Source of the DNA: Chara braunii
Taxonomy: Eukaryota; Plantae; Charophyceae
DNA: 64,000 nucleotides
NCBI GenBank assembly: GCA_003427395.1
Contig: BFEA01000026.1
Span: 1,562,295-1,626,294, forward strand
Reading direction: 5' to 3'
The notes beneath the pieces are model-generated. The model saw only the letters and a program-made list of their open reading frames with translations. It had not been told where the DNA came from and did not search any database. The position numbers and the translations under genes were made by a program. Position 1 is the first letter of the stretch. Each line of letters starts with the position of its first letter. This document shows, in pieces, positions 1,553 to 49,837 of the stretch.

Positions 1553-3614
1553 ATGATGATGAGGTCAGGTACTGTGAAGCCAGGGCCTACGCCTGCAGAA
1601 CAGGCTGAAGTGGAACGGCGACAGGCCGAAAAGAAAAAAGAGAAAGAAACAAAAAGGTTACAAAAGTAAGAAGAGATGAAGAAAATAAAAGAGGAAAGAG
1701 AGAAGCTAGAGAAAGAGATAAAGGATAAAGAAAGAAAGCTCCAGGCAGAGCTAAAGGCAGTTGAAGAAGAAGAAGAAGAAGAAGAAGAAGAAGAAGAAGA
1801 AGAAGAAAAAGAAGAAAAGGAGAATGGTGAAGGATTGCACAGGCGTCATACAGAAAGAGGGAAAACCAGCAGTGTCGGTGGTATTACAATTGAGCTCGAC
1901 CCCATGAACTGGCTCGAACAATTCGGATACAAAACTGTCATGGTGGTTGAGTCGGAGGAGGAGAGAAGTGCATTTATTGCAGAGCTAGCTACCATAACAG
2001 ATCCTAAAGAAAGAGATCTCTTGATAGCGGAACGAAAAGCAGAACTGGATAATAGGATGGTGACAGCAAAGAGATAGGAATTTGAAGAGAAAAAGAGATT
2101 AAAAGAGGAGGGGGAAAAGTTGCAGAGACAGTTACAGAAACAGAAATAGCAGCAAGCGGCTACGGGTGACCGCCTTACCCTCCTCACAGATACTCTCCTT
2201 CACACCAATGAATAATTTGCTGCGTTGACCAAGTCCGTGCAAAAGTTAGAGAATCACCAATTCGAATTTGAGGGAGTGTGGAACAACTTTCTGCAGCGAT
2301 CAGCGTAGGAAGTTGACTAGCACATGTTCAGCTGCATACAAAAGTTGGATGAGAAGTTGGCCAAGAAATTGGCAGATTCTCTCGTGCTAAAGAAGGTGCT
2401 AGGAGGCGGCAGAGGAGACGGAGGAGACGGAGGAGACGGAGATGGAGACGGGGGAGATGGAGACAAAGAAAGAAAACAAAAGGGGGTGCTGCCAAATGAA
2501 GTAGGTCAGATCAATAAAATTAAATTCAAAATCCCATGGACATATAATGGTAAGAAAGAGCAAAGTGTGCTACACTGGATTGTAGCAGTCGAATCGTATG
2601 TCTACGGAGTGCATTCTGTACTGGGACAGGGTGCTAATGGCAAGTTCGTGTATGGAGGGAGATGCCATGAGCTTCGCCATCTGCTTGTAGAAGGAGGCAG
2701 GTTGCAGCTCCATGGTAGAATACTCCCAGCAAACCCGAATTAAGGACTTTTTCAAAGTCATCCGAGAACGGTTTGAAGACAAAAACTTAGCCAAGAGTAC
2801 AAAAATGTTAGTCCTAAACCTCCCAAATAGAAAATGGAAGAGCACCTCTGCGCTTAAAGCCACCATGGACGAACTATTGCAATGCAATGAACATGGACGG
2901 ACCCCTACTCAGATACTGAACAGTTTTGCACGTGCACTACCCGACCCCCTTCGTACTCAGTTGTATCCCCGTACAACGGAAGAGGGGATGACCTACGAGA
3001 AGTTCAGCAAGATCGTCATAGATCACGCTGCTTTCTTGGCTGAGGCCAATTATTGCCATTATTGGAAAGATCTGCAAGCGGGGAAGAAATGGCAAAATCG
3101 CATTATCTCAGGGTCGATACCTGGGAAAAACAACCTTCTTCTGACCTTTGAAGAAGGAGGTGTCGAAACACTTTCTTTGGACCAAGTAGACTATGGTCTT
3201 GAGGAAGGACCCATCGGTTCGGTAGCTCAGGAGGGGAGTTACGCGGCCGTTGCAGCCCACGGGGGAGGGCGACAAGGAAGAGGAGGCCGCGGACGTGGTG
3301 GAAAAGGATCCGACACCCTGAGGAATGGTGGCGAAGGTAGCTACTACGCGGGAGGAAGGGGTAACGGTCCCTCGCAAGGTGACCGCGGTTCTAATTTCAC
3401 CTGGGGTAGAGGAAGAGGCGCTTGATACGGGAACTGAGATAAACCCTATCCGCCCCATCTGGGTCTTCCAGAAGGGGAGTCTCGGAAAAAGTTGGGGATA
3501 ACTGAGCAAGTTTGGCAAGACAGGAAGAAAGCTTACTAGTGCCTCAAGTGTGGGGACCCCGACCACATTGTCCCTTATTGCCCTGACTACAAGGTAGCAA
3601 AAGGGAACAACTAG
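1553..3614 (+). pseudogene. gag: Gag pseudogene (coiled-coil/poly-Glu N-terminus, capsid-like region, RGG tract, CCHC knuckle)
   Basis: Fragmented ORFs (1676-2077, 2324-2743, 2712-3425) with several stops. CLKCGDPDHIVPYC (CX2CX4HX4C) at 3540-3581. Confidence 0.8.
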
Positions 3615-3673
3615 TAGATGTCTCAGTTGCCTCTGCAGGGACTTCGGATGTTGAAAAACAAAAATCCTCCCAT

Positions 3674-5302
3674 TTGAAGGTCCCAATGGCAGAAACTGAA
3701 GACGTAGACAGTCCCCATTTAATACACTGTCCAGAGGTGGCAAACATATGCATCTCTCTAGATGGTTCCCTCGCTGGCGTAGGTGATGAGTTGGCCGCTC
3801 GTCGCCAAGCCTGGACTGAAATGAAGAAATGCAAAGGACAACTAATAATTGCAGATCTTAAAATTAATAAAGTAAGAGTAGGAGGATTGATTGACAGCGG
3901 GTCTACACGCAATTATATTAGTAAGAAAGGTTTGCAGAAACTGCGTCTTGGGCTGAAAGTAAAGCGATTGGATGAGCCCATTATAAGTAAGATAGCAAAT
4001 AGTTCAAAGATGGTCGTGGATCGATACGTCGAGGGGGTACAGACATACTTTCGGCTCGAGGCAGAGGGGAAGGTGGAACGTGTTCTCCACTCTCTGACAA
4101 TCTTGATGGAAGATAGTCTGCCCCTTGATGTGTTGCTAGGCATGGATTGGGGTGAAGCTGCTAATGCGGATATCAAGTTAAGGGACCATGAGTGTTGGCT
4201 CCCAAGTCCGCAGGGTGGAAAGAAGAAAATCCGCCTATTCCATGAATCTGGTAAGGAAACTAGCTTAGCTCATTGTTGTATGAGTGCCCCCGCGTTCGCC
4301 CGCCATGTAAGAAGATATAACTTGTATGATCAAGTGTTTGTTGTATTTGTGCGCCCAATGAAAGAGGGTGAAATAAAGGAAGAGGCCAAGTACCCAGAAA
4401 TTGAAAAGATCCTGAAAGAATTCACAGATGTGGCTGAGGCCCCGAGCGGTGTAGTGGAGAGACTCATCAAACATCGCATAGAGATTATCCCAGGAAGTGA
4501 GATTCCTAAGGGACCCATTTACCGAATGTCCCCAAAAGAATTGGATGAACTGCGATCCCAACTTGACGGATTGATGGAAAAGGGATGGATAAGGCCTAGT
4601 TCCTCGCCCTATGGTGTGCCTGTGCTGTTTGTGCCTAAGAAGGATGGCGGGGTACGCATGTGCATAGATTATAGAAGATTAAACGGGATAACTATAAAAA
4701 ACGCAGAGCCGTTACCGCGAATAGATGATTTGCTGGATCGTGTGCAGGGTTGCAAATACTTCACGAAGATTGATCTGAAGTCTGGCTACCATCAGATTGA
4801 GGTAGAGTCGGAAGACCAATATAAAATTGCCTTCAGAACGAGGTACGGGCACTATGAGTTCGTAGATATGCCCTTTGGTCGTACTAACGCCCCTGCGACC
4901 TTCCAAAGAACGATGAATGAACTCTTTCGCGAGTGGCTTGATAAATTTGTCATTGTTTATTTGGATGATATTTTGATTTTCAGTAAAGATTTGAAAGAAC
5001 ATTCTGAGCACCTTCGACTTGTGCTAAGTAAGTTGGGTGAAGCAAATCTAAAGATTAACCCAAAGAAGTACGATTGGGCCAAGCGTCAGGTTTCGTATTT
5101 AGGGCATGTGCTTGATGGCGATGGAATCAAACCGCAAGACTCAAAAATTGCAGCAATTCGAGATTGGCCAAACCCCCGCACTTTGACTGAGTTACGGTCG
5201 TTCCTTGGGCTAGCCAACTACTATCGGAAGTTCGTTAAACACTTCACGATAATAGCTACACCCCTTTCGAAGGCATTCGGACTGACACCTTTTGAAACAT
5301 GA
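3674..5302 (+). CDS. pol: Pol fragment: aspartic protease plus reverse transcriptase, truncated
   Basis: LIDSGSTRNYIS (protease); PKKDGGVRMCIDYRRLN, KIDLKSGYHQI, MPFG, VYLDDILIFS and LRSFLGLANYYRKF (Gypsy RT). Confidence 0.93.
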   Translation: MKVPMAETEDVDSPHLIHCPEVANICISLDGSLAGVGDELAARRQAWTEMKKCKGQLIIADLKINKVRVGGLIDSGSTRNYISKKGLQKLRLGLKVKRLDEPIISKIANSSKMVVDRYVEGVQTYFRLEAEGKVERVLHSLTILMEDSLPLDVLLGMDWGEAANADIKLRDHECWLPSPQGGKKKIRLFHESGKETSLAHCCMSAPAFARHVRRYNLYDQVFVVFVRPMKEGEIKEEAKYPEIEKILKEFTDVAEAPSGVVERLIKHRIEIIPGSEIPKGPIYRMSPKELDELRSQLDGLMEKGWIRPSSSPYGVPVLFVPKKDGGVRMCIDYRRLNGITIKNAEPLPRIDDLLDRVQGCKYFTKIDLKSGYHQIEVESEDQYKIAFRTRYGHYEFVDMPFGRTNAPATFQRTMNELFREWLDKFVIVYLDDILIFSKDLKEHSEHLRLVLSKLGEANLKINPKKYDWAKRQVSYLGHVLDGDGIKPQDSKIAAIRDWPNPRTLTELRSFLGLANYYRKFVKHFTIIATPLSKAFGLTPFET

Positions 5303-9095: not shown

Positions 9096-10227
9096 CTGTG
9101 TAACCGGTTGAACGCCGTGAACGCACGTTCACATTCAAACGCGCATGTTCAACCCCCCGAGCCCCGCGTTCAATCGCGTTTAAACGCGCTGCACGCGCGC
9201 GCACGCGAAAAAAATGAATGCAGTCCCGCGGGGGGTGCGCACGCGACTGGGGCTACGGGGTGGTGGTCCGAGTTCAACAAACCACCAAAGTGCGAAAATC
9301 CCCGGGACCACCCTATACCCCCCCCCCNNNNNNNNNNNNNNNNNNNNNNNNNNNNNNNNNNNNNNNNNNNNNNNNNNNNNNNNNNNNNNNNNNNNNNNNN
9401 NNNNNNNNNNNNNNNNNNNNNNNNNNNNNNNNNNNNNNNNNNNNNNNNNNNNNNNNNNNNNCACCGCGGCGTGATCTGAGTCGCTAGGCACAGAAGCTGC
9501 TTGGCCTTTTCTCTGTTTGTTTCGTCCCTTTTTTTTTTTTCATTTTTTTTTTTTTCGTTTTTTTTTTTTTTTCCCCCCGCCCACAATTACAACCCCCCAA
9601 ACCACGCCACCCATTTACACACACACACATTGACACACCCACACATACGCGCACATGCACACACAAATTCACACCGTCGCACACACACGGGCACTTTTTT
9701 TTTCGCCAACACGCACAACCCCCCAAACTGAGCCACCCATTTACACAAACAAATACACACACACATAATCACATTCACACACACACACACAAACTGCGAC
9801 CTTTCTTTTATTTTATTTTTCCAAAATTTCTTTTTTGTTTTTTTTTATTATTTAAAAGCGCAAAACAAGCGTTTAGAGAAATTTTAAAAAAAGGGTTGCA
9901 AGGGAAAAAAAAAAAAAGGTGGTTTGGCATGGGTTCGGGCGCAGGGGTGGGGCCGGGGGGGCAGGGGGGGCTACGGGAGGGTTTGGGTTGTGAGGGGCCT
10001 GGAAGCAAAAAAAACACTCGTCGTCTGAAAATAGAAACATCGCAAATGCCAAGATGTAATGATCGAAGCAAAACGCAAACCAATGTAGCATGGATAATAG
10101 CAAAAATCTGACACATCGTGTCGAAGCCCCGCCAGTCTGTGGAAAGAAGTACCAACCCGAAAATGCCGACGAAAAAGCACACTAAAATACACTGGAAAGC
10201 AACAATCTCCGAAGTAGCAAACTGTAG

Positions 10228-10343
10228 AAAAGTGCCTACTGGAAAGTACACTATAATACAACATCACGAAACACTACGTCTGTGCAAAAAAGTACCCAGT
10301 GGAAAGTACACTATAATACAACCTCACGAGACACTACGTCTGT
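10228..10343. repeat. ~60-bp tandem duplication in the hAT 3' region
   Basis: TGGAAAGTACACTATAATACAAC.TCACGA.ACACTACGTCTGT occurs twice. Confidence 0.8.
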
Positions 10344-10404
10344 CATGGATAACAAAAAACTAAAGTACACTGAGGAAGTCACGAAAATGCAAGTCCGTAA
10401 TCCA

Positions 10405-12645
10405 TCAACGATCGTCGTGCGCACACGGATCTCGCTCGGACCGATGAGAAACTCCTCCGTGGGACTGACCCCTGCCACCTCCTCGATCCCTCTGACGCTG
10501 GCCGCCTCGTCCGCCAGCGGAAGGCTTGGGAGCGACGGGAAGCTCGTCGGGATCGTCATCCATAATGACTCTCCTGCCTCTCACCGTCCTGATGGCTGTT
10601 GCTGCTAGGTCATCACGTCGGCGTGACTCGCGTGCCATAGGTAGACCGTCAGTCCCTGAAGTCTCCCCCTCCTGGCGTCGATCTAAGGGCACGTGTCGGG
10701 CCTGCCTCAGTCGTGTAACAACATCAGGCTCCTCCAAAATAATCGACGCCTCTCTCAAACCGTACGTTTGCGGCGGATCCACTACGCTCGCCGTGGCACC
10801 GCCTGCGCCCTCACGTCTGCCGTCACCGTCGCCACCACTGCCACCGCCGCCACCCCCTTTACCGCCAAACCCTGCAGCTACAACATCTCGACGTCTCGCA
10901 CTCGTGGAAACCCCTCTCAATCCTGGCTGACGACCGACACTCGCCGTCGTCACCCGTCTCGTCTCACGCCATGGTCGGTCTGTGCGACCGAACAACATGT
11001 TGTCCAGCAACTCCCGCGCACGCTGGGTAGTGTCTCTCCGTCTACGGGCAACCGACCTCGGGGTGACGCTGCCGCACTCCCTCGGAGCTGCGCTCAAGGG
11101 TGACGAAGGGCCTGCGGCGCCTCCAGATGGCGCTGCGACCGAACCTCCAGAAGGTAAGTCCCCTGCGGCCCCGCCCGATGCCGCTGCGACGGAACCTCCA
11201 GAAGGTAAGCCGCCTGCAGCGCCGCCAGATGGCGCTGCGATGGAACACCCAGAAGGTAAGCTGGGGCTGGCTGACCCCCAAGATAAGTCCTGCACGTGAG
11301 GCAGCTTCCCCTCCTCCGGGACTGACCTCAAAATGCGCTGGTCAATCTCCGTCAAATCCCTCCTGCCGTGGTCCTCAAACTCCTCAGCGGTCATAAAACC
11401 AAAAGGGAGGCTGCCTCGAGGCGTAGCCACATGCCTAATCTCCGGCCTCGTCCGTGACGGCGCAAAAGTAGGGACCGGGGGTATGCACGCGCCCCTGCCT
11501 ACACTTCGCTCCTCGACCGGGTCACTGCCATGTGCAGAACGCCTATAACCCTCAAAAAATGGTGCCTGATGTGGCACCACTGGCCCCACAACAGTGCGAA
11601 CCACCAAAGTCTGTGGCATCTCCTGTCCGTCCGCGTCACGCCTGTCCACCTGTGCGGGGTCTCCCCCGCCGGACGCGAAAATCAGATCGGCCGCGGACGG
11701 CACCCCCCACCCACCAGCACCAACGGCCCCCGCTACGGCCCCGTCCCCCCCCGTGGTCGGCGCTATCCCCTCCGCCTGTGCCGATGGGCGAATATCATCA
11801 ACGCCCACTGAATGCCCCGTTTGTATGACCTCCAGACCCGGGGACATATGCACGGCACCCTCAACTGAACCCGCGGGCAGAGGCACGCCCGCGACCTCCT
11901 GCAATGTCTCCTCTGGCCTCAGTTGCACGGCAGGAGGCTGCGCCGACTCCGAACGTGGCTCCTCTGTCGGTGCCAACCCGCTCTCGTGCGTTCCCTGCTG
12001 AACATCTACTCCGGTACTCGAAACCTCTGCCGAAGTCGCCTCCCGCGGCGTCGTGTCGTGAACCTCTGCCGGAGTATCCGTGTGGGCAGCTGGCCCCACG
12101 TCAACAGACGTCGGCGTATATGTCCCCAGTTGCCTTTGTCAGTCCTTGGCCGCAAGACGGGCGAGCTCTTGCGTCCTGGGGTCCCTCTGTGCCTTGAGGC
12201 ACGCTCGACGACTATCAAGCCTATCCAGCCTCTCTGCAGATGTCTCTCCAAGGGGTGTCCGGTCCTCATCCCCCTCTGCCCCCAACATCACCTCTGCGTG
12301 CATGGCACGGGAGAAACTACTCGGGTCCGCAAAGCCGATCTGTCCCAGTAAGTCCTGCATACCCACACTGATGTCCCCACGGGACTCGCTCTCTCCTCGG
12401 GTCAGACCCACACTTTCTCTCGGGGGCATACCCATATCGCCAAACTCGTTGAAACCGCCACCGCCGCCCATCGGTATCCCCTCAACCGCCGCATCAACCT
12501 CGGCACCGCCTCCACCTCCGGCCAGCGCACCACCATCTCCACCAACCAACCCCTGTCTGTCTCCGTCGTCACCCTGCACTGGCATAGGACCGCCCTCCAA
12601 TCTGTCCTCCAATCGCTGTCTCGGGCCCCTCACCAATCTCTGCAA
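10405..12645 (-). pseudogene. Gly/Ala/Pro-rich, probably disordered C-terminal extension of the hAT transposase (or a second ORF)
   Basis: Consecutive minus-strand ORFs of 168 aa and 564 aa directly follow the transposase. Three 51-bp repeats (LPSGGSVAAPSGGAAG) at ~11110-11260. Confidence 0.5.
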
Positions 12646-15259
12646 TCGATCTGCACCGGCTGGCTGTCGATGAAGCTGCTTCGTCGAAGTGGGAAGAGCG
12701 GAGGATGATGTCGTGCCAAAGCGACCCAGAGGACGATGGCCAATCCCCGACTATGCACCCCTCGAAGGTGCAGACCCAGGATCTGTCTCCCGCTCAGCAG
12801 GAAGCGGGGCACTGGACGCTCTAAAGGGCTCCCATGACGACCCCCAGACTCCTCCTCCAAATCAACTCGAACGAAAAGGTCATCTCCGCCACTCCGTCTA
12901 CAGATGTCCTCAGGGTCACTCCACTCATCACGCTCATCCGCCGCAGGAGTGGCGCTAGCGAGGCCCGCCGGCTCGTCCTCGTACTCGTGACCCTCGGAAT
13001 CACTGTCGTCTCGAGGGTACGGGTGCAATGTGGCGGCTTGAGTCCCAAAAACATCGCCCACATCACCTGGAGGAGCTCTGGATCCACATGGGTCTCGCTG
13101 CCATGAACGTCTCTGATCCTCGACCTCCTCCCGCGTCCTGCTCTCGTCCGTCCCCTTCCACGAGGGGCGAATCCCGATACCTCTCTCCACGTCCAACAAC
13201 GACTCATCTAGAGTCCACGGCAGCGCGAACCCGCGGCCTGCCCGCTGATGAGAGAGAAGGCGGACGTTGGCTGAGATCTCAACCAACTTCGCGACCTTCT
13301 CGAACTCAAGCCGGTTACGCTTCTTCGTTTGTACACCCTCGTGGACGGCCCAATTCCTCTCCGCAGGAGAGGAGCACGTCCACATGTACATCACACGAAG
13401 AGCGATAACCTGCAACTGCGGGGCGCACTGCCCGTACCTCGACCACCAACACCCGGACTCATACGTCTCCGCATCGCCACTGCATCTCTGTGCATCTATA
13501 TCCCTATCTCTCCCCCCCCAATCAATCGCCCCCCTCCGTGTATAGAAGTCGCGCAACTGTGCACACGCGGTCTCATAGTCGCGGTTCGCCACAGTGAACC
13601 CTATCTGCGACAAGATGTAAGTCTCCGCCTCCCTCACCAAGCTCGCGTCGTAGTCGCTGACCACGCCCTCGAAGTACCGCAAGTCCCGCCGGCTGGGACA
13701 AAGAAGGTGAGCAGCGACGTGCGCCGGCTCCAGCATGTGAGCGCATCGAGCCTGCACCCTCTGCACAATGTAGTGTGCAAGATCTCCCGGGAGTGCACAA
13801 ACCTCCTCTGCTACCTGGCGGGCCAGATCCTGTGTCCACTCAACCACCCGCGACATGTGCAGCCCTCTACGGTCCAACCTGCGCAGCAGGTCGTACACAG
13901 GCTCCATGATTCGGAACAAGATGCCCATGGAATCCCACCAACTGCCATGTCGCACCTGCCACCTGACCCACCTAGCCAACTGACGAACGGAATGGTCCCA
14001 AGGGACCATACCCCAAGTATCACCATCCACCGTCCTCTCCAAAGCTGACCTCACTGCCAGCAAATGCTCCACCATCGCGAACACGGATGCGAAACGTGTC
14101 TCGCAAGGATAGATGAGGCCCATCTGACTGCTCTCCCCCCGGAAGATATGGAGAGCGGCGTCGTGCTCCTTAATGAAGCGCACCACCGCTCTCCCCCTCA
14201 CGATGATGTCCTTGGACCACAGGCCCGAACAGCCAATGTCTGACAACATCTTGTTGCAGACATGCACTGCGCATGGGAGCCACGTGATCCGTCGCTGCTC
14301 CGGCCTCTGCTGGGGCCCCTGGAGCATGTTCGCCGCGGCGATGTACGCCGAGGCAACGTACGCCGAGGCGGAGTCGGTGCAGATGGCGTTCACCCACTTG
14401 GGGGAGAAGTCATCGAACACCTTGTTCCAGCGCACCAACACATCAGGCGCCCGATCCCGCTCACCCTCCCTGTTCATCGTCCGGACGAGCATCACCCCAC
14501 ACGACCCGCCGGCAAGGAAGTTAACGATGGGTCTAGCATCGCGTGACTTCCTTCCGTCTGACATAATGGTGGCCCCCGTGACATAGAAAGGAGCCCTGAC
14601 CTCCGCGAGATCAGCTCCCACATCGTCCGCCGTGTGGACAATGGTCTCTTTGTCCGCGATCTCATTCTCTGAAGGCCACAACACCTTCACTGGCCCCGGC
14701 AAGTCCCTGAAGTGCCGGACGACGTCCAACCATGGCTCGCTCCGGAAGACGCTGAACGCCAGGCGCTGACTGTACACAAACCGCAACCACTTCTTCTTGA
14801 ACTCCATCTGCCACTTTGAAGTGAATGACTCCGTGATTGTCTTCTGTCTCATCCTCTTCTTTGTTGTGGCTGCTGCCGTCGGTCTGTCCCCCTCCTCTCT
14901 CTCCTTCCTCTTCCCCGCAGACGCACCCGCCTCAGCCGTATCCGCACCTGCCGGTGTACGAGCCGACACGTGCGCCGACGCAAAGTACTGGCCCTGATGC
15001 CCCCCCGGCTCGCTGACAATGCCCTTCCCTCGCTCCCTCCCTGACGACCCCGCCCGTGCAACCTCCTCGACGTCGTCGTCCACGTCGATCTACTCCCCCG
15101 CGTTGTCAGGCGCATCGGTCCGGCACCGCGCGGGGGCAGCGCGGGACCCTCCCGGCCGCGTCACGCAGGAGTTGGTTTTGAGAACCCTTCGTCGCAATAT
15201 ACATGGAGCTTCCACAAGCCGCTCCGGCTGGGTGCGCCAGCCATACCTCTCGTGAGCCC
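12630..15259 (-). pseudogene. hAT transposase exon 2 (DUF659 catalytic core plus dimerisation domain)
   Basis: TIMSDGRK, AICTDSAS, WLPCAVHVCN, CETRFAS, WWSRYG..P.LQ..A, SSPAERNW and KKRNRL motifs. Acceptor TGTCGTAG at 15260. One TAG at 15090-15092 and a probable frameshift near 12780. Confidence 0.9.
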
Positions 15260-16914
15260 CTACGACAGGATAGGGCCTACGCGAGGCACGACTTACGTAC
15301 ACCTTACGAGAGCTGTCACCTCCCTTCGGTGGGCGTATCCCCGCCGAGCTACCAGTCCACAGTACGAAAGCTAATCAGTTGCAATCGCAGAGGTGGACCA
15401 GCCGAGGGTGTTTCTCGTTCGCTGTAGCATAGGGGGTACGCGCGGTAATACGCCTCTATCGGACCCGCACGCGAACCGACATCTTGGGGGGGCTGAGGTC
15501 CCAAGAGCGATTCATCGTCGGTCGACTAGGACGCATCCCACACACCACGCGCACTCCACTTTACGAACACTCATACACACAAAACAACATATATAGGAAA
15601 CGACACAATACCAACAACGCGACAACGCTCCTAGCCCCTCGGTAGCCAACCCATAACTTTCCAGTGCGGAAATCGGATAGGCGTCGCGCGCTGAACTTAG
15701 TATAAAACCGCGCGGACGCAGGGCATACTCACATCGACTTGCAATGCAGGCGTACACAAGCAGTCGCAACGATGGCGTACTATCTAGTGCCCATAATCAA
15801 GCGGTCCCTCGTGGATCCGAGTACCGCTTATGACACTCAAGTGTCAGACTTGAAGTGTCGTGAGGGCCTACCCCTTCACGACATTGCACGGCTGAAGGAA
15901 TAGTCGTGCAACCGCCACTGCGCCTTAGGCTCTCGACCTGAGTGTCTCGATAGGCAATTCAAATAGGCTCTTCGCGAGAGAAAACCCCTCCCCTGCAGAG
16001 CCTAGGGCTTGGGATGTCCTGGACAAGGATCTCGAATTCCGGCCCAGGACCAAACGTCCGACTAAGAAAATCATAAAAAAGCAAGAGACAAGAATAAAAG
16101 GAGAGACCTCCCCTAAGTCCCTCAGTCTCAGCTTCTGAGTGGGCTTCAATGTGGGGGCTCTTCAACCCATGCAAACATTCATCCCAAGTATACCCATGTA
16201 TACATATATAAGAGTTTAATATGTGACGATCATTTTTCATGGTCTCACTGGGGTCTCTCACGATAATACGTATATGTGTGATCGCAGGCAACCAAATCCA
16301 GAATCTGATTCACAACACATACCTGCCATCACATCAACAAACCAAATCAACAGCCCACACACTACACGGAGTCAACCCCAACCACCTTCGACATTCATAC
16401 CCCTTGCTTTAGCCATGCAAGCCCCAAAACCTCCTGTCCAACCAATCTTAATTAAATACTCAGCACCTTTGTCAAATGGCCATTCAATAAAAGTCCGGGT
16501 GAAACCTTAATAAAACAACGAAATCACAAGAACGAAAGCCTCTTAGGTTGAGTATAGAGGGAGAGTTGAAATTGAGTCGTAGACCGACGAATCGACAACC
16601 GACCTGTTATCAGTGATAACAGTAAGTGATCCTCAAGGGATCAAGCTGGATCTATCCCTGAACTTTGATCAAATGATCAAAAGGACCTGTAACACACGGC
16701 AGACCAATCCCCAAGCTAAGATCATAAGTGTATGCAGAATACAACTCCATAATACATCCTTACTCAAAACCTCCTTATAAGTTAAACCTAAGTCTACTTT
16801 TAAGTCAGTGCTTAAGCCAAAGGTAGACCAACTGCAAAAATCTCCCCTATTCTGGGTGGATCGCCTAAATCTCCTATCAAAATATAATCTATCTTCTTTA
16901 AACTAAAAAAAAAT

Positions 16915-18190
16915 TGGCAGCGCTTCCCATAGGAAAAATGTCTTTTCATAATTTATATAAGCCCAGATATGGGAGCAGAAATAATCTCTAACTCCTGGAA
17001 AGTCAAATTCTATCTAACTCTTTGAATTAGTAGAAATTTGGGTAGCACTTCCTTTAGAAAGGGATACTTCCCAGATTTATACTAAGTCAGATATGAAAGC
17101 AGAAATTAATCTCTAACTCTGGAAAGTCAAATTTTGTCTAACTCTCTGAATTAGTAAAAATTTAGGCAGCACTTCCTTTAGAAAGGGAGACTTCCCAGAT
17201 TTATACTAGGTCAGATATAAAAGCAGAAATTAATCTCTAACTCTGGAAAGTCAAATTNNNNNNNNNNNNNNNNNNNNNNNNNNNNNNNNNNNNNNNNNNN
17301 NNNNNNNNNNNNNNNNNNNNNNNNNNNNNNNNNNNNNNNNNNNNNNNNNNNNNNNNNNNNNNNNNNNNNNNNNNNNNNNNNNNNNNNNNNNNNNNNNNNN
17401 NNNNNNNNNNNNNNNNNNNNNNNNNNNNNNNNNNNNNNNNNNNNNNNNNNNNNNNNNNNNNNNNNNNNNNNNNNNNNNNNNNNNNNNNNNNNNNNNNNNN
17501 NNNNNNNNNNNNNNNNNNNNNNNNNNNNNNNNNNNNNNNNNNNNNNNNNNNNNNNNNNNNNNNNNNNNNNNNNNNNNNNNNNNNNNNNNNNNNNNNNNNN
17601 NNNNNNNNNNNNNNNNNNNNNNNNNNNNNNNNNNNNNNNNNNNNNNNNNNNNNNNNNNNNNNNNNNNNNNNNNNNNNNNNNNNNNNNNNNNNNNNNNNNN
17701 NNNNNNNNNNNNNNNNNNNNNNNNNNNNNNNNNNNNNNNNNNNNNNNNNNNNNNNNNNNNNNNNNNNNNNNNNNNNNNNNNNNCCTTTAGAAAGGGAGAC
17801 TTCCCAGATTTATACTAAGTCAGATATGAACTCGAACAATAGCTCGAGCTCAACTGTAGACTCAATTTAACTAACTCCTTAATTTTGTAGAAATTTCGGC
17901 AGCACACCCTCTAGAAAAGTGTTATTCCAAAATTTATACAAGGCTAAGTTCAGAATTTTGAGAATAACTTTAACCTCTCAAAGTCCAATTTTGTCTAACT
18001 CCTTGAATTAGTAAAAATTTGGGCAGCACTCCCTCTAGAAAATGAGATTTTTCAGATTTATACTAATCCATATATGAAAAAGACAAGCTGAACTCTGGCA
18101 AGTCAAAAGTTGATTAACTTCTTGGATTTGTAGAAATTTCGGTAGCGCTTCCCGTAGGAAAAGTAGCTTGCCAAGATTTATACAAAGCCA
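16915..18190. repeat. ~124-bp AT-rich tandem satellite spanning a gap
   Basis: Units (AGCACTTCCTTTAGAAAGGGAGACTTCCCAGATTTATACT...) start at ~16918, 17043, 17167, 17900, 18024 and 18143. Confidence 0.85.
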
Positions 18191-18469
18191 AGAATAAGAA
18201 AAGATCTCAGAAAATGCAAGAATTGACCTAAGTAAAAAAAACGTTATTACAGAAAATGCAGGAATCAACACTTACTCCTATGGCTCTAGCACGTGGCGAG
18301 CAACTACAGCAACTACCCATAGTAATGAAACCCAAACAAAACTAGTCATCCCATCCAGTCACATGCAAATCAAACCACGAACGTAAGTACTATCACCCTC
18401 CCAAGTTCATTCCATATAAATAGTTCGTGAATCTTCAAGTTCTTGAATCCTTATACCCATCTTACATAA

Positions 18470-19166
18470 GACATAGAGATGGACCATTCGCCATGGAAAC
18501 AATGCCCAACTTGTCTTTATGATATACACGAACAGGTTGCACAACTACTTCTTTCTTCTTTTGGGCGGATGACTAGGTCATTCACCATGGAAACAATGCC
18601 TAGTCACCCTGAGCTGTTTAATATCTAAAGATTTTAATATTTATCTGATTTTGATAGAAAGAAGAGACAAATATGGGCAGGGGACTGAATGATTCACAGT
18701 AGAAACGATGTTCAGCTTGCCCCAAACTATTTCCATTTATACTCTGCATTTTCCCTTCTTTCTTCTTAATGATATGGCTTAACGCTGGACCATTCACAGT
18801 AGAAACAATGCCCAGCTGCCAGTTCACATGCAAATATACATAAAGTACTTTCCTTTATACTTAGTTTAATTTATGTGCGTGGTTTTCAGGCTAAGCCATT
18901 CACCATGGAAACAATGCTTAGCCTTAGACAAAAAATCCTCCCTCAGAATAAAACAAGAATTTAAACCCCTTTCAATCAGGCAAAACCCTCAGAGTTAACT
19001 AGAGTAGCCAGACCATTCACAGTAGAAACAACGCCTGGTTCCCTAGAAAACAATAAAATAAACATAGCAACCAGACCATTCACAGTAGAAACAATGTTTG
19101 GTCCTTCAGAAAACAGTCAAATAAACATAGCCCTGAGCNATTCACAGTAGAAACAATGCTCAGGCT
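18470..19166 (-). repeat. Array of 8 hairpins with a conserved 20-nt core and variable stems and spacers
   Basis: Core CATTCAC(AGTA/CATG)GAAACAATG at 18485, 18579, 18691, 18791, 18897, 19014, 19077 and 19139, each flanked by its own inverted repeat. Confidence 0.88.
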
Positions 19167-19359
19167 TTGGTTGACCCTGTCAATCACAAACAGTCTGCCT
19201 TCCTCCCACCTTCCCCCAATTTATCCCTTTGTCTGCTTTCAGTCGGAATAAAGAAGGAACTTGAACTTCACTCTCACACATTCCTTCCTTCTGATCTGAT
19301 TGGGTCCTGAAGAGAAAACAATAATCATAGGGATAAACTCACGCATACATCAGCCATAT

Positions 19360-20275
19360 TGTAGGGGGATAAACAAACATTGGTGGTAGTAGGTTGTACA
19401 AGTGGAAATGGTTTACCTGACGATTCCCTGCCTCCAGAACTCCTCTTGAGTTCCGGCAGAGCTCCCGCAATCGGTGGGTGGACTCCCCACAGAGTCTTGA
19501 CGCGGACCTACGGGTTGCAATCCCGCCTGCCGCCTTCCTCTCGTAACCAACAGACTAGACTTAGAGTTAGAAAGATAGAAGTAGAAAGATGCGAGACCCT
19601 CAGATCCCAGAATGATGCTCTCAGTCTCGCAAGAAAGGGCCTTGTAATCTTCAACTCCTGAGGGCCCCGCAATGGCAGCCAATGTGGCAGCTTGGTCGAT
19701 TCAACAGCCAATCGTCAAAATTCATTCTTTGCCGACCTCTTGAATCACAGCCCTAACCTCCTTCGCCACTATTCTACTGAGCGGCAGCCGCAACCACCTT
19801 TCCCTAAGTCCAGCTGCCGTCGTACAGCAGATCGCAACAGTCAGCCGCGGCCGCAGGGGTACTCAATGGTATGCATTAGTCAACAGGGGCAGCCGTTGTG
19901 CGCGATCCTTAGTCGCAGCAGCAACGCTCAGCAGTGATCAACAGCAAAAGGTGACCATGCCTGTTCAGTTCACAACAACAACCAGTGCGTAATAGCGGCT
20001 AACAACGATTAATAGTGCATGGCATGCAGCAGCAGACCGCGCGCCGTACACAGTAGCATATGCGCTAAGTGGTGCGTCCGGGCACGAACTGTTGCTGCTG
20101 CCAACAGCCGCTGTAGGCTGAGGGCAGGATACCACTGTACTAGCCGTATTACGNGAAAACTCANAAAAAANTACCCTATGGAGCACGTTGAGAACTCAGC
20201 ATGCCTAGCTGAGGCCCGGTGTTTGCACTATGAGACTGTGTTGGCCAGTCCGTACATGGTCGCAACCCAGTAACA
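19360..20275 (-). mobile_element. Putative 5' LTR (~915 bp) of a non-coding LTR element nested in the hAT intron
   Basis: Minus strand begins TGTTACTGGG and ends CCCCCTACA, followed after 3 nt by TGGCTGATG (PBS-like). Abuts a gap. No partner LTR is visible. Confidence 0.55.
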
Positions 20276-21657
20276 NNNNNNNNNNNNNNNNNNNNNNNNN
20301 NNNNNNNNNNNNNNNNNNNNNNNNNNNNNNNNNNNNNNNNNNNNNNNNNNNNNNNNNNNNNNNNNNNNNNNNNNNNNNNNNNNNNNNNNNNNNNNNNNNN
20401 NNNNNNNNNNNNNNNNNNNNNNNNNNNNNNNNNNNNNNNNNNNNNNNNNNNNNNNNNNNNNNNNNNNNNNNNNNNNNNNNNNNNNNNNNNNNNNNNNNNN
20501 NNNNNNNNNNNNNNNNNNNNNNNNNNNNNNNNNNNNNNNNNNNNNNNNNNNNNNNNNNNNNNNNNNNNNNNNNNNNNNNNNNNNNNNNNNNNNNNNNNNN
20601 NNNNNNNNNNNNNNNNNNNNNNNNNNNNNNNNNNNNNNNNNNNNNNNNNNNNNNNNNNNNNNNNNNNNNNNNNNNNNNNNNNNNNNNNNNNNNNNNNNNN
20701 NNNNNNNNNNNNNNNNNNNNNNNNNNNNNNNNNNNNNNNNNNNNNNNNNNNNNNNNNNNNNNNNNNNNNNNNNNNNNNNNNNNNNNNNNNNNNNNNNNNN
20801 NNNNNNNNNNNNNNNNNNNNNNNNNNNNNNNNNNNNNNNNNNNNNNNNNNNNNNNNNNNNNNNNNNNNNNNNNNNNNNNNNNNNNNNNNNNNNNNNNNNN
20901 CGCGCGGAGGTTTCCTTACTAACTCTTATCCTACTGACTGTCTTCTAAATCTAACCTTCCTATTCAACTCGCCCTACATAAAAACGCCTATATAGGCCCT
21001 TCCCCCGCCCAAATCCATGAAGTATCGCGTTCACCACTATTTCTTTTCTGCGCCCGAATCTTTCTTCCGCCATCCCATTTTCCCACATGCACCTGGTGCA
21101 ATACCCAGCCAGGTTCATTTCACTATTTTCCCTTCCTCCGTGCACCTATTCTCTTTATTAACCCACTATTCTACTAATCCCTTACTAGAACTAACTTCAC
21201 AGTCCACCTCGCCTACACCGATAACCCCCACCCATCACCTTTCCTTGCTTATTTCCGTTAGGAACGGCCGAGCTCGACTAACTCTCCTTCTCACTTTCGC
21301 CCCCTCCCCGCCATCGCTCTTCTACCCGTCTCAGTCTCGCAATAGACCCGGGCGCGGATCGCGTCTGGGTGCATTCACCTTTTCTCTTCGCTGTTCCTGC
21401 TTAGTTCATTGTTGCTCTCCCTTCAATCGGCCCCTGCCTTGGCCCCCGTCTAGGTTCAGCCTCTCTCTTCGTGGCCTCACCTTAGTGCCCCGTCGCTCCT
21501 CTGCCTTTGCCCGTGATACTCCATACTGTAGTGGCCAGCCCGACAACCGCAGCGCTCCGCTATCCGTCTCTCTACCTCGCCTTCCCTTGCCTAGCACTCG
21601 TCACCCCGGTCCCCAGATGCTGCGCAGTCCGACGAAAACTTGGGTGTCAGAAACAGG

Positions 21658-21762
21658 AAACGTTTGGCCGTCGGCCCTTTTCCTGATTTATGCACGTCAC
21701 CCTGGGCGCGAGCCATGCTACTTCTCTGTATCGCTCCAATTCTGACGGATGTCCCGAGGGTC
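21658..21762 (-). pseudogene. U6: Degenerate U6 snRNA copy B
   Basis: GACCCTCGGGACATCCGTCAGAATTGGAGCGATACAGAGAAGTAGCATGG...GCATAAATCAGGAAA; ACAGAGA box and AGC retained. Confidence 0.8.
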
Positions 21763-21917
21763 CTGCCCGGGGTAATGCCCTGCGGCGGCACCAAATGGCC
21801 GCTCGGCCTATTGCACGGGGAGGGTGGGCCAGACACCGTCCTCCTAGCCACTCCGCACGCACCCCGCTGGTCTGTACGTACCCGGCGCGGTCTGCGTCCG
21901 GGTTCGTTCCGGACCCT

Positions 21918-21992
21918 TGCGCACCATCCTTGTTCAGGGGCCATGCTAATCTCCTCGGTATCGTTCCAATTTTAACAGATGTCCTAAAGGAC
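21918..21992 (-). pseudogene. U6: Degenerate U6 snRNA copy A (3' end missing)
   Basis: GTCCTTTAGGACATCTGTTAAAATTGGAACGATACCGAGGAGATTAGCATGGCCCCTGAACAAGGATGGTGCGCA; ACAGAGA box altered to ACCGAGG. Confidence 0.85.
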
Positions 21993-22905
21993 TTTGGCCG
22001 GAACAGTGCCCCCACGGAAGTGCATGGGCCACTCGCCTTGTGGCTTGACCGTTCGTGGGTGCGCCCACTACGGCAGGCTCTCGGCCATATCCCGAAAGAA
22101 AACGGGACCCAAAAAAAAGAAAAATACAACTAAAAAAAATAATAATAAAAAGACAAAAATATTAAAAAAAACCGTTTTACTACAAGATCTAAAACGGGAA
22201 CTGGGAGCTACTGGCACCTCGCTAGTCCCTTAGGTCGGGCCCGTCACTACGCATGTCACCAAAACTGAGGGGGGGGATAGCCCCGTCGGGCCCTCAATCC
22301 ATCGGTTTTCTCCTCGATGCTCCGCTGCCACCGCGCCGACGTCTGCCGGCCTCGATCCCCGAACCTCCGTTGTAATAGTCCGATGCCATAACCTATAGCC
22401 CAAGCCTGAGACCAAAACACGCCGAGTGCCATATAAGACGGTGCGGCGCGGCGCTTTGGGCCAACAAAAACGGCTGCGCGGCTCTCAGTGCCCACGCCGG
22501 CTTGCTTATACCATGCCATATTTGCCCCGCGCGCCATCCTACGACATCCCGCTCACGACACGAAATCACGCCATTATTTCCGATGTCGTCGTCGGGGTCG
22601 TTCTCCGCACGCGCGCTTGACCTACTAATCAAAAAGAAAGTATCCTTAATCCCTGCTTAATAAATAATAATAATATCACCAACCGAAACGACCGAGGTCC
22701 GGGTTGGCTTTACGATAAAATAACAGAAAATAATCACGAGCGCCTTGAACCTGCGCGCCCACGCACTCGCTATTGCGGTCAACCACCCAGTCAAAGCAAT
22801 TACTGACGCAGCCGCGCTTAGCGCGGTATACTTAGACTCTAGACCAAAACTATTTTCTGTCACTTGCAAAAACCAGGGCGGATACCCTTGTAAGGGTATT
22901 CGCAC

Positions 22906-23290
22906 CGACAGCGTCCCTCATCTCTCCCTCCCCCCCCTCGTCCCGTCGCGGATCCATCGCAGGCGCCGCACCGTGAAGCTCCTCAAATCGCTGTATCCGC
23001 TCTAGGAACTTGTCGGACATCTTGTACTCACTGTTATAGTGGATGTGGACAAGTGCCTCGTCTGTCACTTCCGGACATCCCTTGCCCTGGCGGAAATGGC
23101 GCGCCGCCACGAACTGGTTGCCCTGGAACTCGTGGCCGCAGAAAATGCACTTCAACATGCGATTGCCGTGGAATCTCTCGCCGAGATTCTGTCCCACGCG
23201 GATGTACTTGTACACGCAGCACTTCTTCTGCGCCTTCCGATTCTCGTCCTCCCCCCCATCCTCAAACACCCGAGATTGCCTTCGCGGCAT
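22906..23290 (-). CDS. hAT transposase exon 1, BED zinc finger
   Basis: VYKYIRVG...LKCIFCGHEFQGNQFVAARHFRQGKGC (C-x2-C...H...C). Donor GTGCGA at 22905. Confidence 0.75.
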
Positions 23291-23421
23291 CGTGCCCGCT
23301 CGCCGACGGGTTCACCGAAGCGGTCTGCCCCCAGCCTGTCCCACGGAGCTCCAACTCCCGCCGGCGTCCCTCCCCGCACCAGGCCTCGTCGGGCGCACCC
23401 CTAGCTGCCTCTCTCGTGTCG

Positions 23422-23463
<42 letters not shown>

Positions 23464-23530
23464 CGGCCTCGAAACCCCGCACTGCGCCGCAAAAGCGACG
23501 CGGGCCGCGCACAGGTCCCTCCTCCAGCCC

Positions 23531-23620
23531 CCGTTCAAAAACTTTGAACGCGCGTTCAAAAAGTTGAACGCGTGTTCAAAGAATTGAACGCGCGTTCAAA
23601 AAACTGAACGCGGGTTCAAT
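23531..23620. repeat. hAT subterminal palindrome array (likely transposase-binding sites)
   Basis: Four copies of TTGAACGCG(C/T/G)GTTCAA at ~20-bp period. Related motifs at 9108-9190 and 24365-24420. Confidence 0.75.
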
Positions 23621-27838: not shown

Positions 27839-30217
27839 GATCGAATCATATCCGACCATGACCCGCACTTTACCAGTCAATTCTGATGACGACTCCACGA
27901 GGTGTACGACACCCAGCTTGCTTCTCCTCGTCTTACCATCCCCAGACTGATGGTCAGACTGAGGTCACGAACATCACTCTCGGAGATATTCTCCGAAAAA
28001 TTGCTCGTAACGACCAGCAGTGCGATCTCCATCTTGCCCACGCGGAGATAGCCTACAACCACACCGTCTCGCCAGCCACGGGGATATCGCCTTATTATTG
28101 AGACGTCGGTTATCACCCTCGTGTTCCCGCGGACTTCCTTCGACCGTCACAGATGCACCCCGACACGAGTTGTCCCGCGTTGGATGATTGGGTTGCACAC
28201 ATGACGTCGATCATGAAGACTGCGCATAAGCACAAAACCGCTTCCCAGACTCGCATGGCCGCACATGCGAGCCGATCGAGGATGGATCATACATTCAAAG
28301 TCGGTGATGATGTGTTTGTCGACGCCCGCCACTTACAGCTCGAACCGGACACGGTTCGCAAGTTCCGACATCGCTTTTTTGGCCCATGCTGCATTCTCCA
28401 GGCAATCGGTTCTGATATGGCATCTAGCTCGGTCAGTTTCCGTGTGAAGCTGCCCGACTACCTACACCAGACTCGTGTGCACGATGTCTACCACGTCTCA
28501 TTACTGCGTCCCTACCGCAAACCGTCAGAGCGTTTCGTTGGACGACCATAGGAGCGACCTCCACCCATCATGGTGGACGACCGTGAGGAGTTCCTCGTTT
28601 CATACATTATTGGTTGTCGAGTCACTGACGACAACCCTCCTCACGTCGAGTATCTTGTATGCTGGAAGGGTTACCTTGATGAGGAGGCTACCTAGGAGCC
28701 CCTCGAGCACTTGCAGCACACTCCCATGTTGGTGCGTGCCTATGATCGTGCTCGTCGTGCTGGGTTGATTGGTTCTCCTCAGCCCATTGACCCTCCTCCT
28801 TCTCCCTCGACTGAGGAGACCGTTGAAGTCGAGCCTACTCCATCTGATGCAGACCTTCAGCAGCAGTGGGATGCTTCTGAGCGTCCATATTGCACTTGTC
28901 GTCGTCTTGCTCGATACGATGATTGACTCTGACTTATCTTTGACTTCTCAGTACTCCATCCACTCCAGTTTTTCCACTTCAGCTAGTCGACGTTGCGACT
29001 TTTCCTCGACGACATTCCGTACTTCTCATCATGGATGTCGTCGGCAGCTTCACGACCTTCGTCACAATCAGCTCTGCCTACTTCAGACGTTGTCACTCTC
29101 TTACCACCTTACCCTGTACAGTACCCTGGTTGTGTTGCATGATGATCTCCCTTCGCCAGGTTCCTCTGAGTTGGGCTCTCCCTTAGTATACGCATAGGCA
29201 TCGGGACTGTAGTGTTGCCCTGGCTTCCCAGCTTACGGATCCAGCTCCGACTTTACCTTAGGAGTCATTTGTATGATTCCCTTACCCATCACTTTTTCTA
29301 CCCTTTGCTGGCCCTCACGCCCTAGTTAGGCAGCCTTGCATGGTTCATCTAGCTGCGCCCAATATACCAGGCTCCCTTATTCCTTGCATGGTCGACCCTC
29401 CATAGTTGTCACCCCTTTAGTCTAGTATTACCCGCCCTGATGGTCTATCTGTTAGGGTCATTGGTTCTGTTCGCTGCCAGTTCCCTACCCTCATTGAACC
29501 TGATGCCATGTGTCTCCCTATTATTATGTGTGGATGCCGTTAGGAGTTTATCGACCCCTGGGCTGCATTCGCCATCCTTAGAGACCATCCCACCCTGTGG
29601 TTTGCGATACACTCCTCTTGTGACATATGGTTGTCTTGTTGTTGCTTTGTTGCTCTCAGACTGAGACTACTGCCTCTAACATTTCTAGGATTTAGTTGTT
29701 TCTGCTTTTGTTGTTCTTAGGACTTATATACTAGTCAGTTGACTGAGTTGTTTCTAGACTCAGGCTACTGCCTCCAACATTCTAGGATTTAGTTGTCATT
29801 ACTTCTTGTTTTCCTAGGACATGTATACTAGTTAGTTGCTTCTGCTTTAACTTAGGCTGGTAGTTGTGACGTTGCTGTTTTTTGTGACATGTTCTATCCT
29901 AGGTTGCATCGCATGGACTCAGCATGGAGCTTGCTCCGCATCGTAGACTACTCGGGTTTTCTTTTTCTTTGGTAGAGTTCCGCTTCTTGGCGGAAGCGTG
30001 CTTGTATCTAGGTGATCCATCATAGGTCGAGGATCGTGTAGCAGACCTCTGGTTGGCCTGTGAGACCAGCCACTTGGCCTGTTCTCACAGGCTTGTGTTG
30101 TATTCAGGGTAGTCCAGTCCAGGCCGGTACCTCTGTCGGTACGAGTCGGTCCAGTCCAATCCAGTCAGTCCGCTAGGGTATACCCTAGCCAGAGTCTATA
30201 CTTTAGGTCATTCTACA
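27839..30217 (+). mobile_element. 5'-truncated chromovirus (Gypsy) fragment: integrase C-terminus, chromodomain, 3' UTR and candidate short LTR
   Basis: RIISDHDPHFTSQF, SSSYHPQTDGQTE, FKVGDDV, RFFGP and HDVYHVSLLRPY (integrase). EYLVCWKGY..EEAT*EPLEHL (chromodomain, ~28585-28745). Several stops. TGTA...TACA segment at 30003-30217. Confidence 0.85.
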
Positions 30218-42036: not shown

Positions 42037-42653
42037 AAAAAAAAACAAAAAAGAAAAAGGGAAACATAAGCAATCGCGTCCCACACATTCTGGCCAGATA
42101 CATTCCTCAAAGCACTGGTGTCACGCATCCCGCCTTCCCCCATGAAAACAAATGATGAAGAAAACGAAAAACGATACTTCCCTTATGCTTCTATCTCGGT
42201 CCGATACAGGAGCTACAGTGCTGTTGTGAGCTAGGCTACCAGAGTGGCCCGGGGTCACTTGCCCGGCCGGGCCAAAATAATGAAAAAAAATATAATATTT
42301 TTGAATTTTATTTTTTATTTAAAATTTGGTGAAGAATTTCGATGTGACCCTCAGGCAAAAGTTGTTCAGTTTATTTTTCTGCATAACATATTTTGTTTTC
42401 GGATTTTTCTGTTCTTTGTTTTTTTTTTTTTTTTTTTGCTGGGACCTTCCCTGGTCCTTGCACGGGCTGGCCACCCGGGACCCCCCGGCTGGTAGCCTAG
42501 GTTGTGAGTAGGACATGTGTGACGCAGCTACTGTTGGTGTCCCCCGGGGCCAAGTCCACAGGCACCGTTGAACTAGTTCAATGCAACGGTGTGACACGGA
42601 ACTCGAAAGAAAGGCAAAAAAGAAGAATCAACTGGTACTTAAAGTTTTTTTCC

Positions 42654-42805
42654 CTGTTTTAGTATCTGATCTGTGGTCCATCGGACCACACGATATTAAA
42701 TTAGTTTTGCTGGGCTACAGAGGGGTCATATGGGTAGGCTTGCCTGCTCTACTCCTCCAGTGTTGCCTCTGTATTGCACTGCAGCGGAGTGTGGCGCAGC
42801 CCTCT
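42654..42805 (+). pseudogene. U2: 5'-truncated retroposed U2 snRNA
   Basis: TTTAGTATCTGAT, stem IIb TGTGGTCC-ATC-GGACCACA, CGATATTAA, stem III GTAGG-CTTG-CCTGC and loop IV GTATTGCACTGC. Followed by an A-rich tail and a degenerate flanking direct repeat. Confidence 0.85.
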
Positions 42806-49735: not shown

Positions 49736-49837
49736 GTCCTTCGGGACATCAGTTAAAATTGGAACGATACAGAGAAGCTTAGCATGGCCCCTGCGCAAGG
49801 ATGACACGCATAAATCAAGAAATGGTCCAAATGTTTT
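49736..49837 (+). pseudogene. U6: Near full-length retroposed U6 snRNA
   Basis: GTCCTTCGGGACATC...ATACAGAGAAGCTTAGCATGGCCCCTGCGCAAGGATGACACGCATAAATCAAGAAATGGTCCAAATGTTTT. A-rich tail. TSD TCTCCAAGTG(G) at 49726 and 49867. No USE/TATA promoter seen. Confidence 0.93.

Follow-up and report, generated by a model that had tools for sequence, protein, structure and literature searches.

Retroviral packaging regions generally lie between the splice donor and the start of gag, and the account in PMC3247676 includes repeated GACG hairpins among their components. The SL-C and SL-D hairpins of Moloney murine leukemia virus resemble the locus reported here in several respects: in both cases, stem-loops recur with a conserved loop in a reverse-transcribing element, close to a splice donor (a likely one in Chara), and some of the loops are self-complementary (PMC3247676). 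The virus has two such hairpins (PMC3247676), whereas the array found in Chara comprises eight, is accompanied by a second array and presents a different and larger head of 20 nt. Unlike in the virus, neither a gag gene nor a primer-binding site was found in the Chara insertion, and the likeness is drawn from sequence. In coronaviruses, repetitive structural motifs (gUUYCGUc in SL5, and agc/guAAu) are present in two to eight copies and have been proposed to serve packaging, short structured RNA repeats being described there as typical of packaging signals (PMC8206606). The Chara motif likewise is short, structured and repeated, and its loop is conserved; the coronavirus motifs belong to an RNA virus and are unrelated in sequence, and the likeness is one of design only.

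With regard to plants, the large Ty3/gypsy elements of the Ogre/Tat/Athila type carry tandem arrays in their non-coding regions, their LTRs reach about 5 kb, and 4-bp duplications occur (PMC6317226). The Chara element also has a large non-coding region with tandem arrays; as these elements are described in that source, a motif with a conserved loop and covarying stems is not mentioned. Maize Sirevirus LTRs (Ty1/copia) contain a GC-rich palindrome region whose sequence differs between loci, and thereby offer another case of a plant LTR retrotransposon that can form hairpins at several loci (PMC4728375). We rejected this region as a counterpart, as the Chara array has 39% GC and a fixed, asymmetric core shared by all units, and no copia domains were found. 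The ENE of Arabidopsis Evade, in which a U-rich internal loop binds the poly(A) tail, is similarly a cis-acting structure in the RNA of a plant retrotransposon, whereas the Chara motif is repeated (PMC12501189). The triple-helix element itself was not recognized in the array: in both folds inspected, a U run occurs on one side only, with none on the 3' side. Hairpin regions are already known in plant LTR elements (Sirevirus, Evade ENE), and the Chara array is different from these in its sequence make-up.

The array lies in a 64-kb stretch of Chara braunii DNA, all of which was analyzed and which we refer to as the window (Table 1). Our preferred reading, to which we assign a probability of about 0.45, is that the hairpins, formed on the minus strand, serve as multiple docking sites of a single protein, which is most likely the Gag or nucleocapsid of a coding partner, and that the non-coding RNA would in this way be packaged and then copied.

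Table 1. Position of the insertion, its surroundings and the repeated structures within the window
Feature	Position	Strand	Remarks
Whole insertion	15104..22910		TGTC...GACA termini; assembly gaps of 526 and 625 N
Target-site duplication GCGT, left	15100..15103	+	abuts the TGTC end
Target-site duplication GCGT, right	22911..22914	+	abuts the GACA end
Host: 3' part of hAT transposase gene	12630..15099	-	DUF659, hAT dimerisation domain; 5' part beyond 22914
Second array	16884..18200	-	124-bp units, 6 visible, assembly gap inside; predicted hairpin of ~72 nt per unit, tip C(UANN)G
Hairpin H1	18478..18510	-	core 18485-18504; C(CAUG)G tip
Hairpin H2	18572..18604	-	C(CAUG)G tip
Hairpin H3	18684..18716	-	C(UACU)G tip; 3 letters private to the window copy
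Hairpin H4	18784..18816	-	C(UACU)G tip
Hairpin H5	18890..18922	-	C(CAUG)G tip
Hairpin H6	19007..19039	-	C(UACU)G tip
Hairpin H7	19070..19102	-	C(UACU)G tip
Hairpin H8	19132..19164	-	C(UACU)G tip; contains one N
Module common to more subfamilies than the array	19417..19550	-	strong RNA coverage (top in two libraries); subfamily flanks differ; ends at candidate donor CAG|GTAAAC, 19417/19416

When up to two mismatches were allowed, exactly eight matches to the 20-nt core were found in the window, each with 0-2 mismatches, and none in any of 100 dinucleotide shuffles. The cores start at 18485, 18579, 18691, 18791, 18897, 19014, 19077 and 19139, at spacings of 94, 112, 100, 106, 117, 63 and 62 nt, as the initial annotation had reported. 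On the minus strand, the unit consists of a stem, CAUUGUUUC, UACU or CAUG, GYGAAUGG and the returning stem. Over the 24 hairpins of the window and of two further copies (L019 and L025, described below), the tip is C(UACU)G in 13, C(CAUG)G in nine and different in two. An AUG is present inside every core of the array. The spacers, the first five of which had been described as mutually unrelated, are mostly dissimilar; spacers 1 and 3 are nonetheless homologous, their likeness exceeding all 300 shuffles, as does that of spacers 6 and 7, and the likeness of spacers 3 and 4 exceeds all shuffles but two.

The palindrome CCAUGG was indeed found in three of the eight window loops, those of H1, H2 and H5, and the same three account for the nine occurrences among the 24 loops. 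Loop-loop kissing is established for the gammaretroviral GACG hairpins, as stated in PMC3247676, and the array could by the same principle serve mainly for RNA-RNA dimerization. Such kissing, which had been suggested earlier, is possible for H1, H2 and H5, but the other five window hairpins lack the palindrome; over the three copies, 15 of the 24 loops have no self-complementary tip and yet share the remainder of the core. We therefore consider dimerization very improbable as the main role of the array.

The structure was derived from the 24 hairpins of the three copies, which form 23 distinct rows. A fold with a CAUU/AAUG stem and one bulge pairs 95.2% of 229 cells, compared with 84.8 +/- 1.3% in shuffled controls, none of 500 of which reached the observed value, and 18-51% in slid controls. 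The core can alternatively be folded without a bulge, a UUC/GAA stem then closing a six-base loop; this arrangement pairs 94.8% of 230 cells. The two tip folds are equally supported, and the CAUU/AAUG stem with a single bulge that had been proposed earlier is only one of them. In the window, 41 of the 48 cells of the eight outer stems are Watson-Crick pairs; when the 3' arms are permuted, the mean is 25.9, and only 2 of 40,320 arrangements attain the observed number. This agrees with the earlier claim that the stems change in sequence and keep their pairing. All 23 distinct rows keep the pairs at columns 17-45 and 18-44, where both sides have changed 7 and 11 times, respectively; such two-sided changes were found at four pairs of the hairpin alignment, and RNAalifold recovered the same helix. 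The C-G pair at columns 16-46 is near-invariant among the units. As the eight units share ancestry, visible in this pair and in the homologous spacers 1/3 and 6/7, few of the two-sided changes are independent; by our own count, they number about 4-5. Single hairpins fold weakly, with z between -3.9 and -0.05 on the minus strand.

The second array also appears to be structured. In the minus-strand fold of its 124-bp units (16 units from three copies), 93.1% of 288 cells are paired, compared with 88.2 +/- 1.0% after shuffling (0 of 500 reached the observed value). The five-pair tip stem on the minus strand swaps U-G, C-G and U-A pairs, and the covariation term is -1.73 on the minus strand vs -0.43 on the plus strand, tallies that are biased to the minus strand by the derivation of the structure on that strand from these same sequences. 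The tips of the 16 units read CUAAAG in five, CUAGAG in four, CUACGG in four and otherwise in three, and both arrays keep an A at the second loop position. The model of the eight-hairpin motif (R1) does not pick up the 124-bp units, and the likeness of the tips is one of form, not shown as homology.

The array likely folds on minus-strand RNA, as far as pairing and predicted energies can indicate strand and folding in vivo. Among 240 cells, 15 are G-U on the minus strand against 5 on the plus strand, which bears out the G-U evidence on which the annotation had proposed a minus-strand RNA. The pair adjacent to the core is G-U, G-C or A-U on the minus strand in 22 of 23 rows, and at 18895, 95% of the genomic depth (X1, X2, X4) has the letter that makes the H5 pair G-U. 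The 676-nt array region gives z = -2.05 on the minus strand vs +0.19 on the plus strand (20 shuffles each), and five of the seven single hairpins tested have the lower z on the minus strand, H8 having been skipped owing to its N. DNA folding energies exhibit no clear strand preference.

Further copies were drawn solely from two metagenome contigs and from read tables. Among the metagenome contigs, 30 loci match the core, 28 of them as single matches without an array; the two others, L019 and L025, are true copies that hold all eight hairpins and are 88% (886/1004) and 91% (898/990) identical to the window. Viral contigs gave two single core matches, and none for two other patterns of the element. 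The core scan of genome contigs returned 0 matches, and one Streptomyces match there was to a different 21-mer. Single matches score 24.5-34 bits, far below the 51.9-69.6 bits of the 24 training hairpins (model R1), and were taken as chance rather than as real hairpins. At one of them, in a viral contig (L001 1496-1525; L031 has the same stretch), the flanks add five stem pairs, probably also by chance.

The content and order of the spacers are the same in all three copies. This speaks against the suggestion, prompted by a fixed core alternating with mostly dissimilar spacers, of a CRISPR-like repeat-spacer array or of one from which spacer RNAs or small RNAs are processed, as do the homologies of spacers 6/7 and 1/3. 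Moreover, the unit-skipping joints listed in the array have a depth of 7-199 vs tens of thousands, and RNA reads display a single pile-up of read starts (19004, 5 molecules). At about 10 bp, the stems are also short compared with Dicer substrates. We regard a reading of this kind as hardly credible.

Between the copies, core and stems behave differently. Ten of 159 core positions vary, vs 75 of 424 in the spacers (P = 3e-4), whereas stems vary at 16 of 96 positions, as often as the spacers (P = 0.88). The 17 copy-specific changes in paired cells comprise nine that keep pairing and eight that break it. All eight hairpins are kept in the two further copies, where their stems are no better conserved than the spacers. 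As aligned here, the three decaying copies show apparent constraint, or homogenization, on the head and none on the stems, and the covariation signal of the stems comes from differences between units, not between copies. The window copy departs from the motif by minority or private letters at 18578 (DNA reads) and at 18690, 18691, 18707 and 19032 (RNA reads), and its private letters in H3 and H6 are missing from the RNA reads that cover them.

These observations could also be accounted for by a repeat acting at the DNA level, either a transcription-factor site or a sequence homogenized by gene conversion, in which the paired flanks would stem from hairpin-templated correction and RNA structure would be unselected. 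The stems being no better conserved than the spacers and the 8 of 17 changes that break pairs would both fit, and tandem arrays are common in the non-coding parts of large plant Ty3/gypsy elements, according to the description in PMC6317226. Nevertheless, templated correction would yield Watson-Crick pairs on both strands rather than recurrent G-U pairs on one strand in two adjacent arrays, and the DNA folding energies, which do not clearly favor one strand, speak against it as well. We find this explanation distinctly unlikely.

With regard to the element that carries the arrays, the host is a hAT (DUF659) transposon at about 9117-23620, whose two ends carry subterminal repeats of the TTGAACGCG type (family D20) and which is split by the insertion. 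Across the empty site, the hAT frame runs from a methionine near 23290 into an 819-residue frame, with one internal stop. The insertion has the TG...CA termini and a duplication within the 4-6 bp expected of LTR retrotransposons; 12 TG/CA pairs passed the same end filter, and the choice among them rests on the hAT frame and on the depth step at 15104. The duplicated GCGT fits an NCGN target preference, as described for moss Phygy elements (PMC6317226). The insertion is of the integrase type; to judge from its letters, it probably represents either a long LTR, solo or collapsed, or an LTR element that is nested. Its ends show no similarity to each other (score 33 vs a shuffled maximum of 40), part of the insertion being hidden by the two gaps, and neither a primer-binding site nor a polypurine tract was found at any supported LTR end. 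A search of the insertion for an inner, nested element flanked by a duplication of its own identified none. No tblastn match from 120 pol-type relatives and no Gag or Pol was found in 15104-22910; the decayed frames at 19416-20150 and the frames at 20996-21742 were blank in Pfam and homolog searches, and those at 19416-20150 in Atlas as well. No tRNA genes were found.

The initial annotation had placed an LTR end and primer-binding site about 190 nt before the array, near 18290. The right end of the insertion, at 22910, reads CCGACA, unlike the letters before 18290, and the TGG proposed as primer-binding site at 18294 is replaced by TGACG in L019, follows a tandem array and lies where the family continues across the site. 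A plus-strand leader of this kind also conflicts with the minus-strand RNA. The element is probably a high-copy, non-coding, LTR-type retroelement of Chara, its class and orientation being deduced. Elsewhere in the window, a Ty3/gypsy protease-RT frame is located at 3587-5302 (+) and a separate, decayed 3' part of pol at 27925-28750 (+). For the neighboring gypsy pol frame, the best 46 of the 120 listed relatives are from Chara braunii, with a best identity of 67-68%. Two tandem U6 snRNA-like copies lie inside the insertion, both on the minus strand (21673-21763, by blastn; 21893-21992, Rfam 61.6 bits). Another U6 copy at 49736-49836 (+) is followed by an A-rich tail, has repeated CTCCAAGTG flanks and is likely a LINE-made retrocopy, and a U2-like sequence at 42635-42804 (+) has a decayed 5' end (48.5 bits).

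Between 61,806 and 70,400 contigs per DNA run align to 15000-20150, and the summed depth over the array amounts to 18,000-80,000 in X1 and 32,000-131,000 in X2, most of the listed single contigs having a depth of 5-20. As a rough estimate, the family would have at least a thousand copies, summed depth not being equal to copy number and the runs possibly being the window's own source. Depth peaks at 15172-15515 and drops about 40-fold past 19650, where the window copy therefore carries a segment that is uncommon. The highest-copy end of the insertion contains a plus-strand TATA-like box in the region 15701-15735, with an initiator-like site about 30 nt further on, together with a short inverted repeat, TGTCGTGA...TCACGACA, at 15857-15883. 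A weak self-priming match is found near 15884.

RNA data consisted of three oligo-dT libraries (X9, X10 and X11) from one study, 6-13% of each run being read, with strand assigned under the usual protocol and a stretch that offers no strand control gene. Most RNA reads are less than 95% identical to the window and therefore come from other copies. At 19300-19643, nearly all reads of X9 and X11 are first-mate-plus (28.5:1.6 and 65.6:0.16), which corresponds to minus-strand RNA. Over the array, X9 has about 7 reads and X11 about 4, almost exclusively minus, whereas X10, the deepest library, has about 120 minus vs about 250 plus. The family is likely transcribed on the minus strand, though not in that direction alone; the minus-strand transcription expected from the annotation is thus seen in X9 and X11, while in X10 plus reads are ahead by about 2:1.

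The reads raise the possibility that the element is plus-oriented and that the hairpins function in an antisense transcript made from an internal promoter near 19600-19700, or in the first cDNA strand while it is single-stranded. In X10, plus-strand reads lead by 2-4:1 over most of the element, the minus reads of X9 and X11 peak at 19300-19643, and the TATA-like box at 15701 is on the plus strand. On the other hand, X10 depth follows DNA depth on both strands (rho 0.89 and 0.93), as broad background transcription would, and no primer-binding site follows any plus-strand LTR end. Action of the hairpins in this manner is, in our assessment, quite improbable.

At 19424, DNA contigs and X10 reads run on into the minus-strand donor; the reads of X9 and X11 part from this sequence there, with a mixture of letters and an agreement of about 0.5. 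From these loose read ends, we infer splicing at the donor 19417/19416, no joint being among those listed. On the folding strand, the array is situated 250-950 nt past this likely donor, and a possible acceptor at 19307 could retain it in spliced RNA. In the same region, a small hairpin at 19512-19526 has the palindrome TTGCAA in its loop, a possible dimerization site, and paired +1/-1 indels in reads at 19424-19550 hint at coding constraint, protein searches there being blank.

The annotation had not recognized the motif as a described family, and this holds as far as Rfam is concerned: the array has no match at E up to 10, L019 and L025 have none at E up to 1, and weak hits occur only outside the array. 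A retrozyme or self-cleaving ribozyme was rejected on the same searches of the array (E up to 10) and of L019/L025 (E up to 1). The iron-responsive element is a CAGUGN loop located five pairs above a bulged C. Plus-strand CAGUAG occurs in five of the eight window cores without the 5-bp stem, with no Rfam match, and this candidate was discarded. The U1A/U2B'' hairpin was likewise dismissed, as AUUGCAC is absent and the U2 consensus loop reads AUUGCACUAC vs AUUGUUUCUAC here. In the literature, as represented by titles and the beginnings of abstracts, there is no account of the motif or of Chara LTR cis-elements; the supplements of the 2018 Chara genome may describe the family.

A host protein could bind the same hairpins and thereby export, localize or stabilize the unspliced RNA of the element. 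All of the structural evidence applies equally to such a protein, and the Evade ENE is reported to protect a plant retrotransposon RNA and to aid its mobility (PMC12501189). No described host-factor motif was matched, however, the array being without an Rfam match and its loop without the AUUGCAC of U2 stem-loop IV, and we judge this explanation unlikely.

Docking of a partner's Gag or nucleocapsid thus remains the reading that we favor. A fixed, asymmetric head, freely varying stems and an eightfold occurrence on one strand suggest a multivalent protein-binding signal, and Gag is proposed as its ligand because the partner's Gag is the protein that a non-coding element needs most. The array would have arisen by tandem duplication of one unit, after which the spacers drifted. 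The minus-strand RNA of the element would carry it folded into eight hairpins, in which the 20-nt head would be the recognized part and the variable stems would merely present it. By analogy with known packaging signals, the head may dock the Gag or nucleocapsid of a coding partner supplied in trans. Located past the splice donor, the array would mark unspliced RNA, the 124-bp units could add further sites with a related tip, and the docked non-coding RNA would then be packaged and copied. The earlier suggestion that a non-coding mobile element carries a structured, multivalent module is supported by the minus-strand fold and by the presence of the module in other copies. A bolder version, which we consider doubtful, is that the two successive arrays (eight 33-nt and at least six 72-nt units, with a shared C(YANN)G tip, on more than 2 kb of RNA) form a multivalent scaffold that out-competes the coding partner for Gag, and would exemplify a recurring, undescribed design of packaging signals.

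To our knowledge, it is poorly defined how plant and algal LTR retrotransposons select their own RNA and how non-coding parasites borrow the Gag of a partner. The 33-nt unit combines a fixed head with natural variants of the stem and two types of loop, and is a ready object for probing and binding assays. The array also suggests that some of the "tandem repeats" in large plant retroelements may be selected RNA structure.
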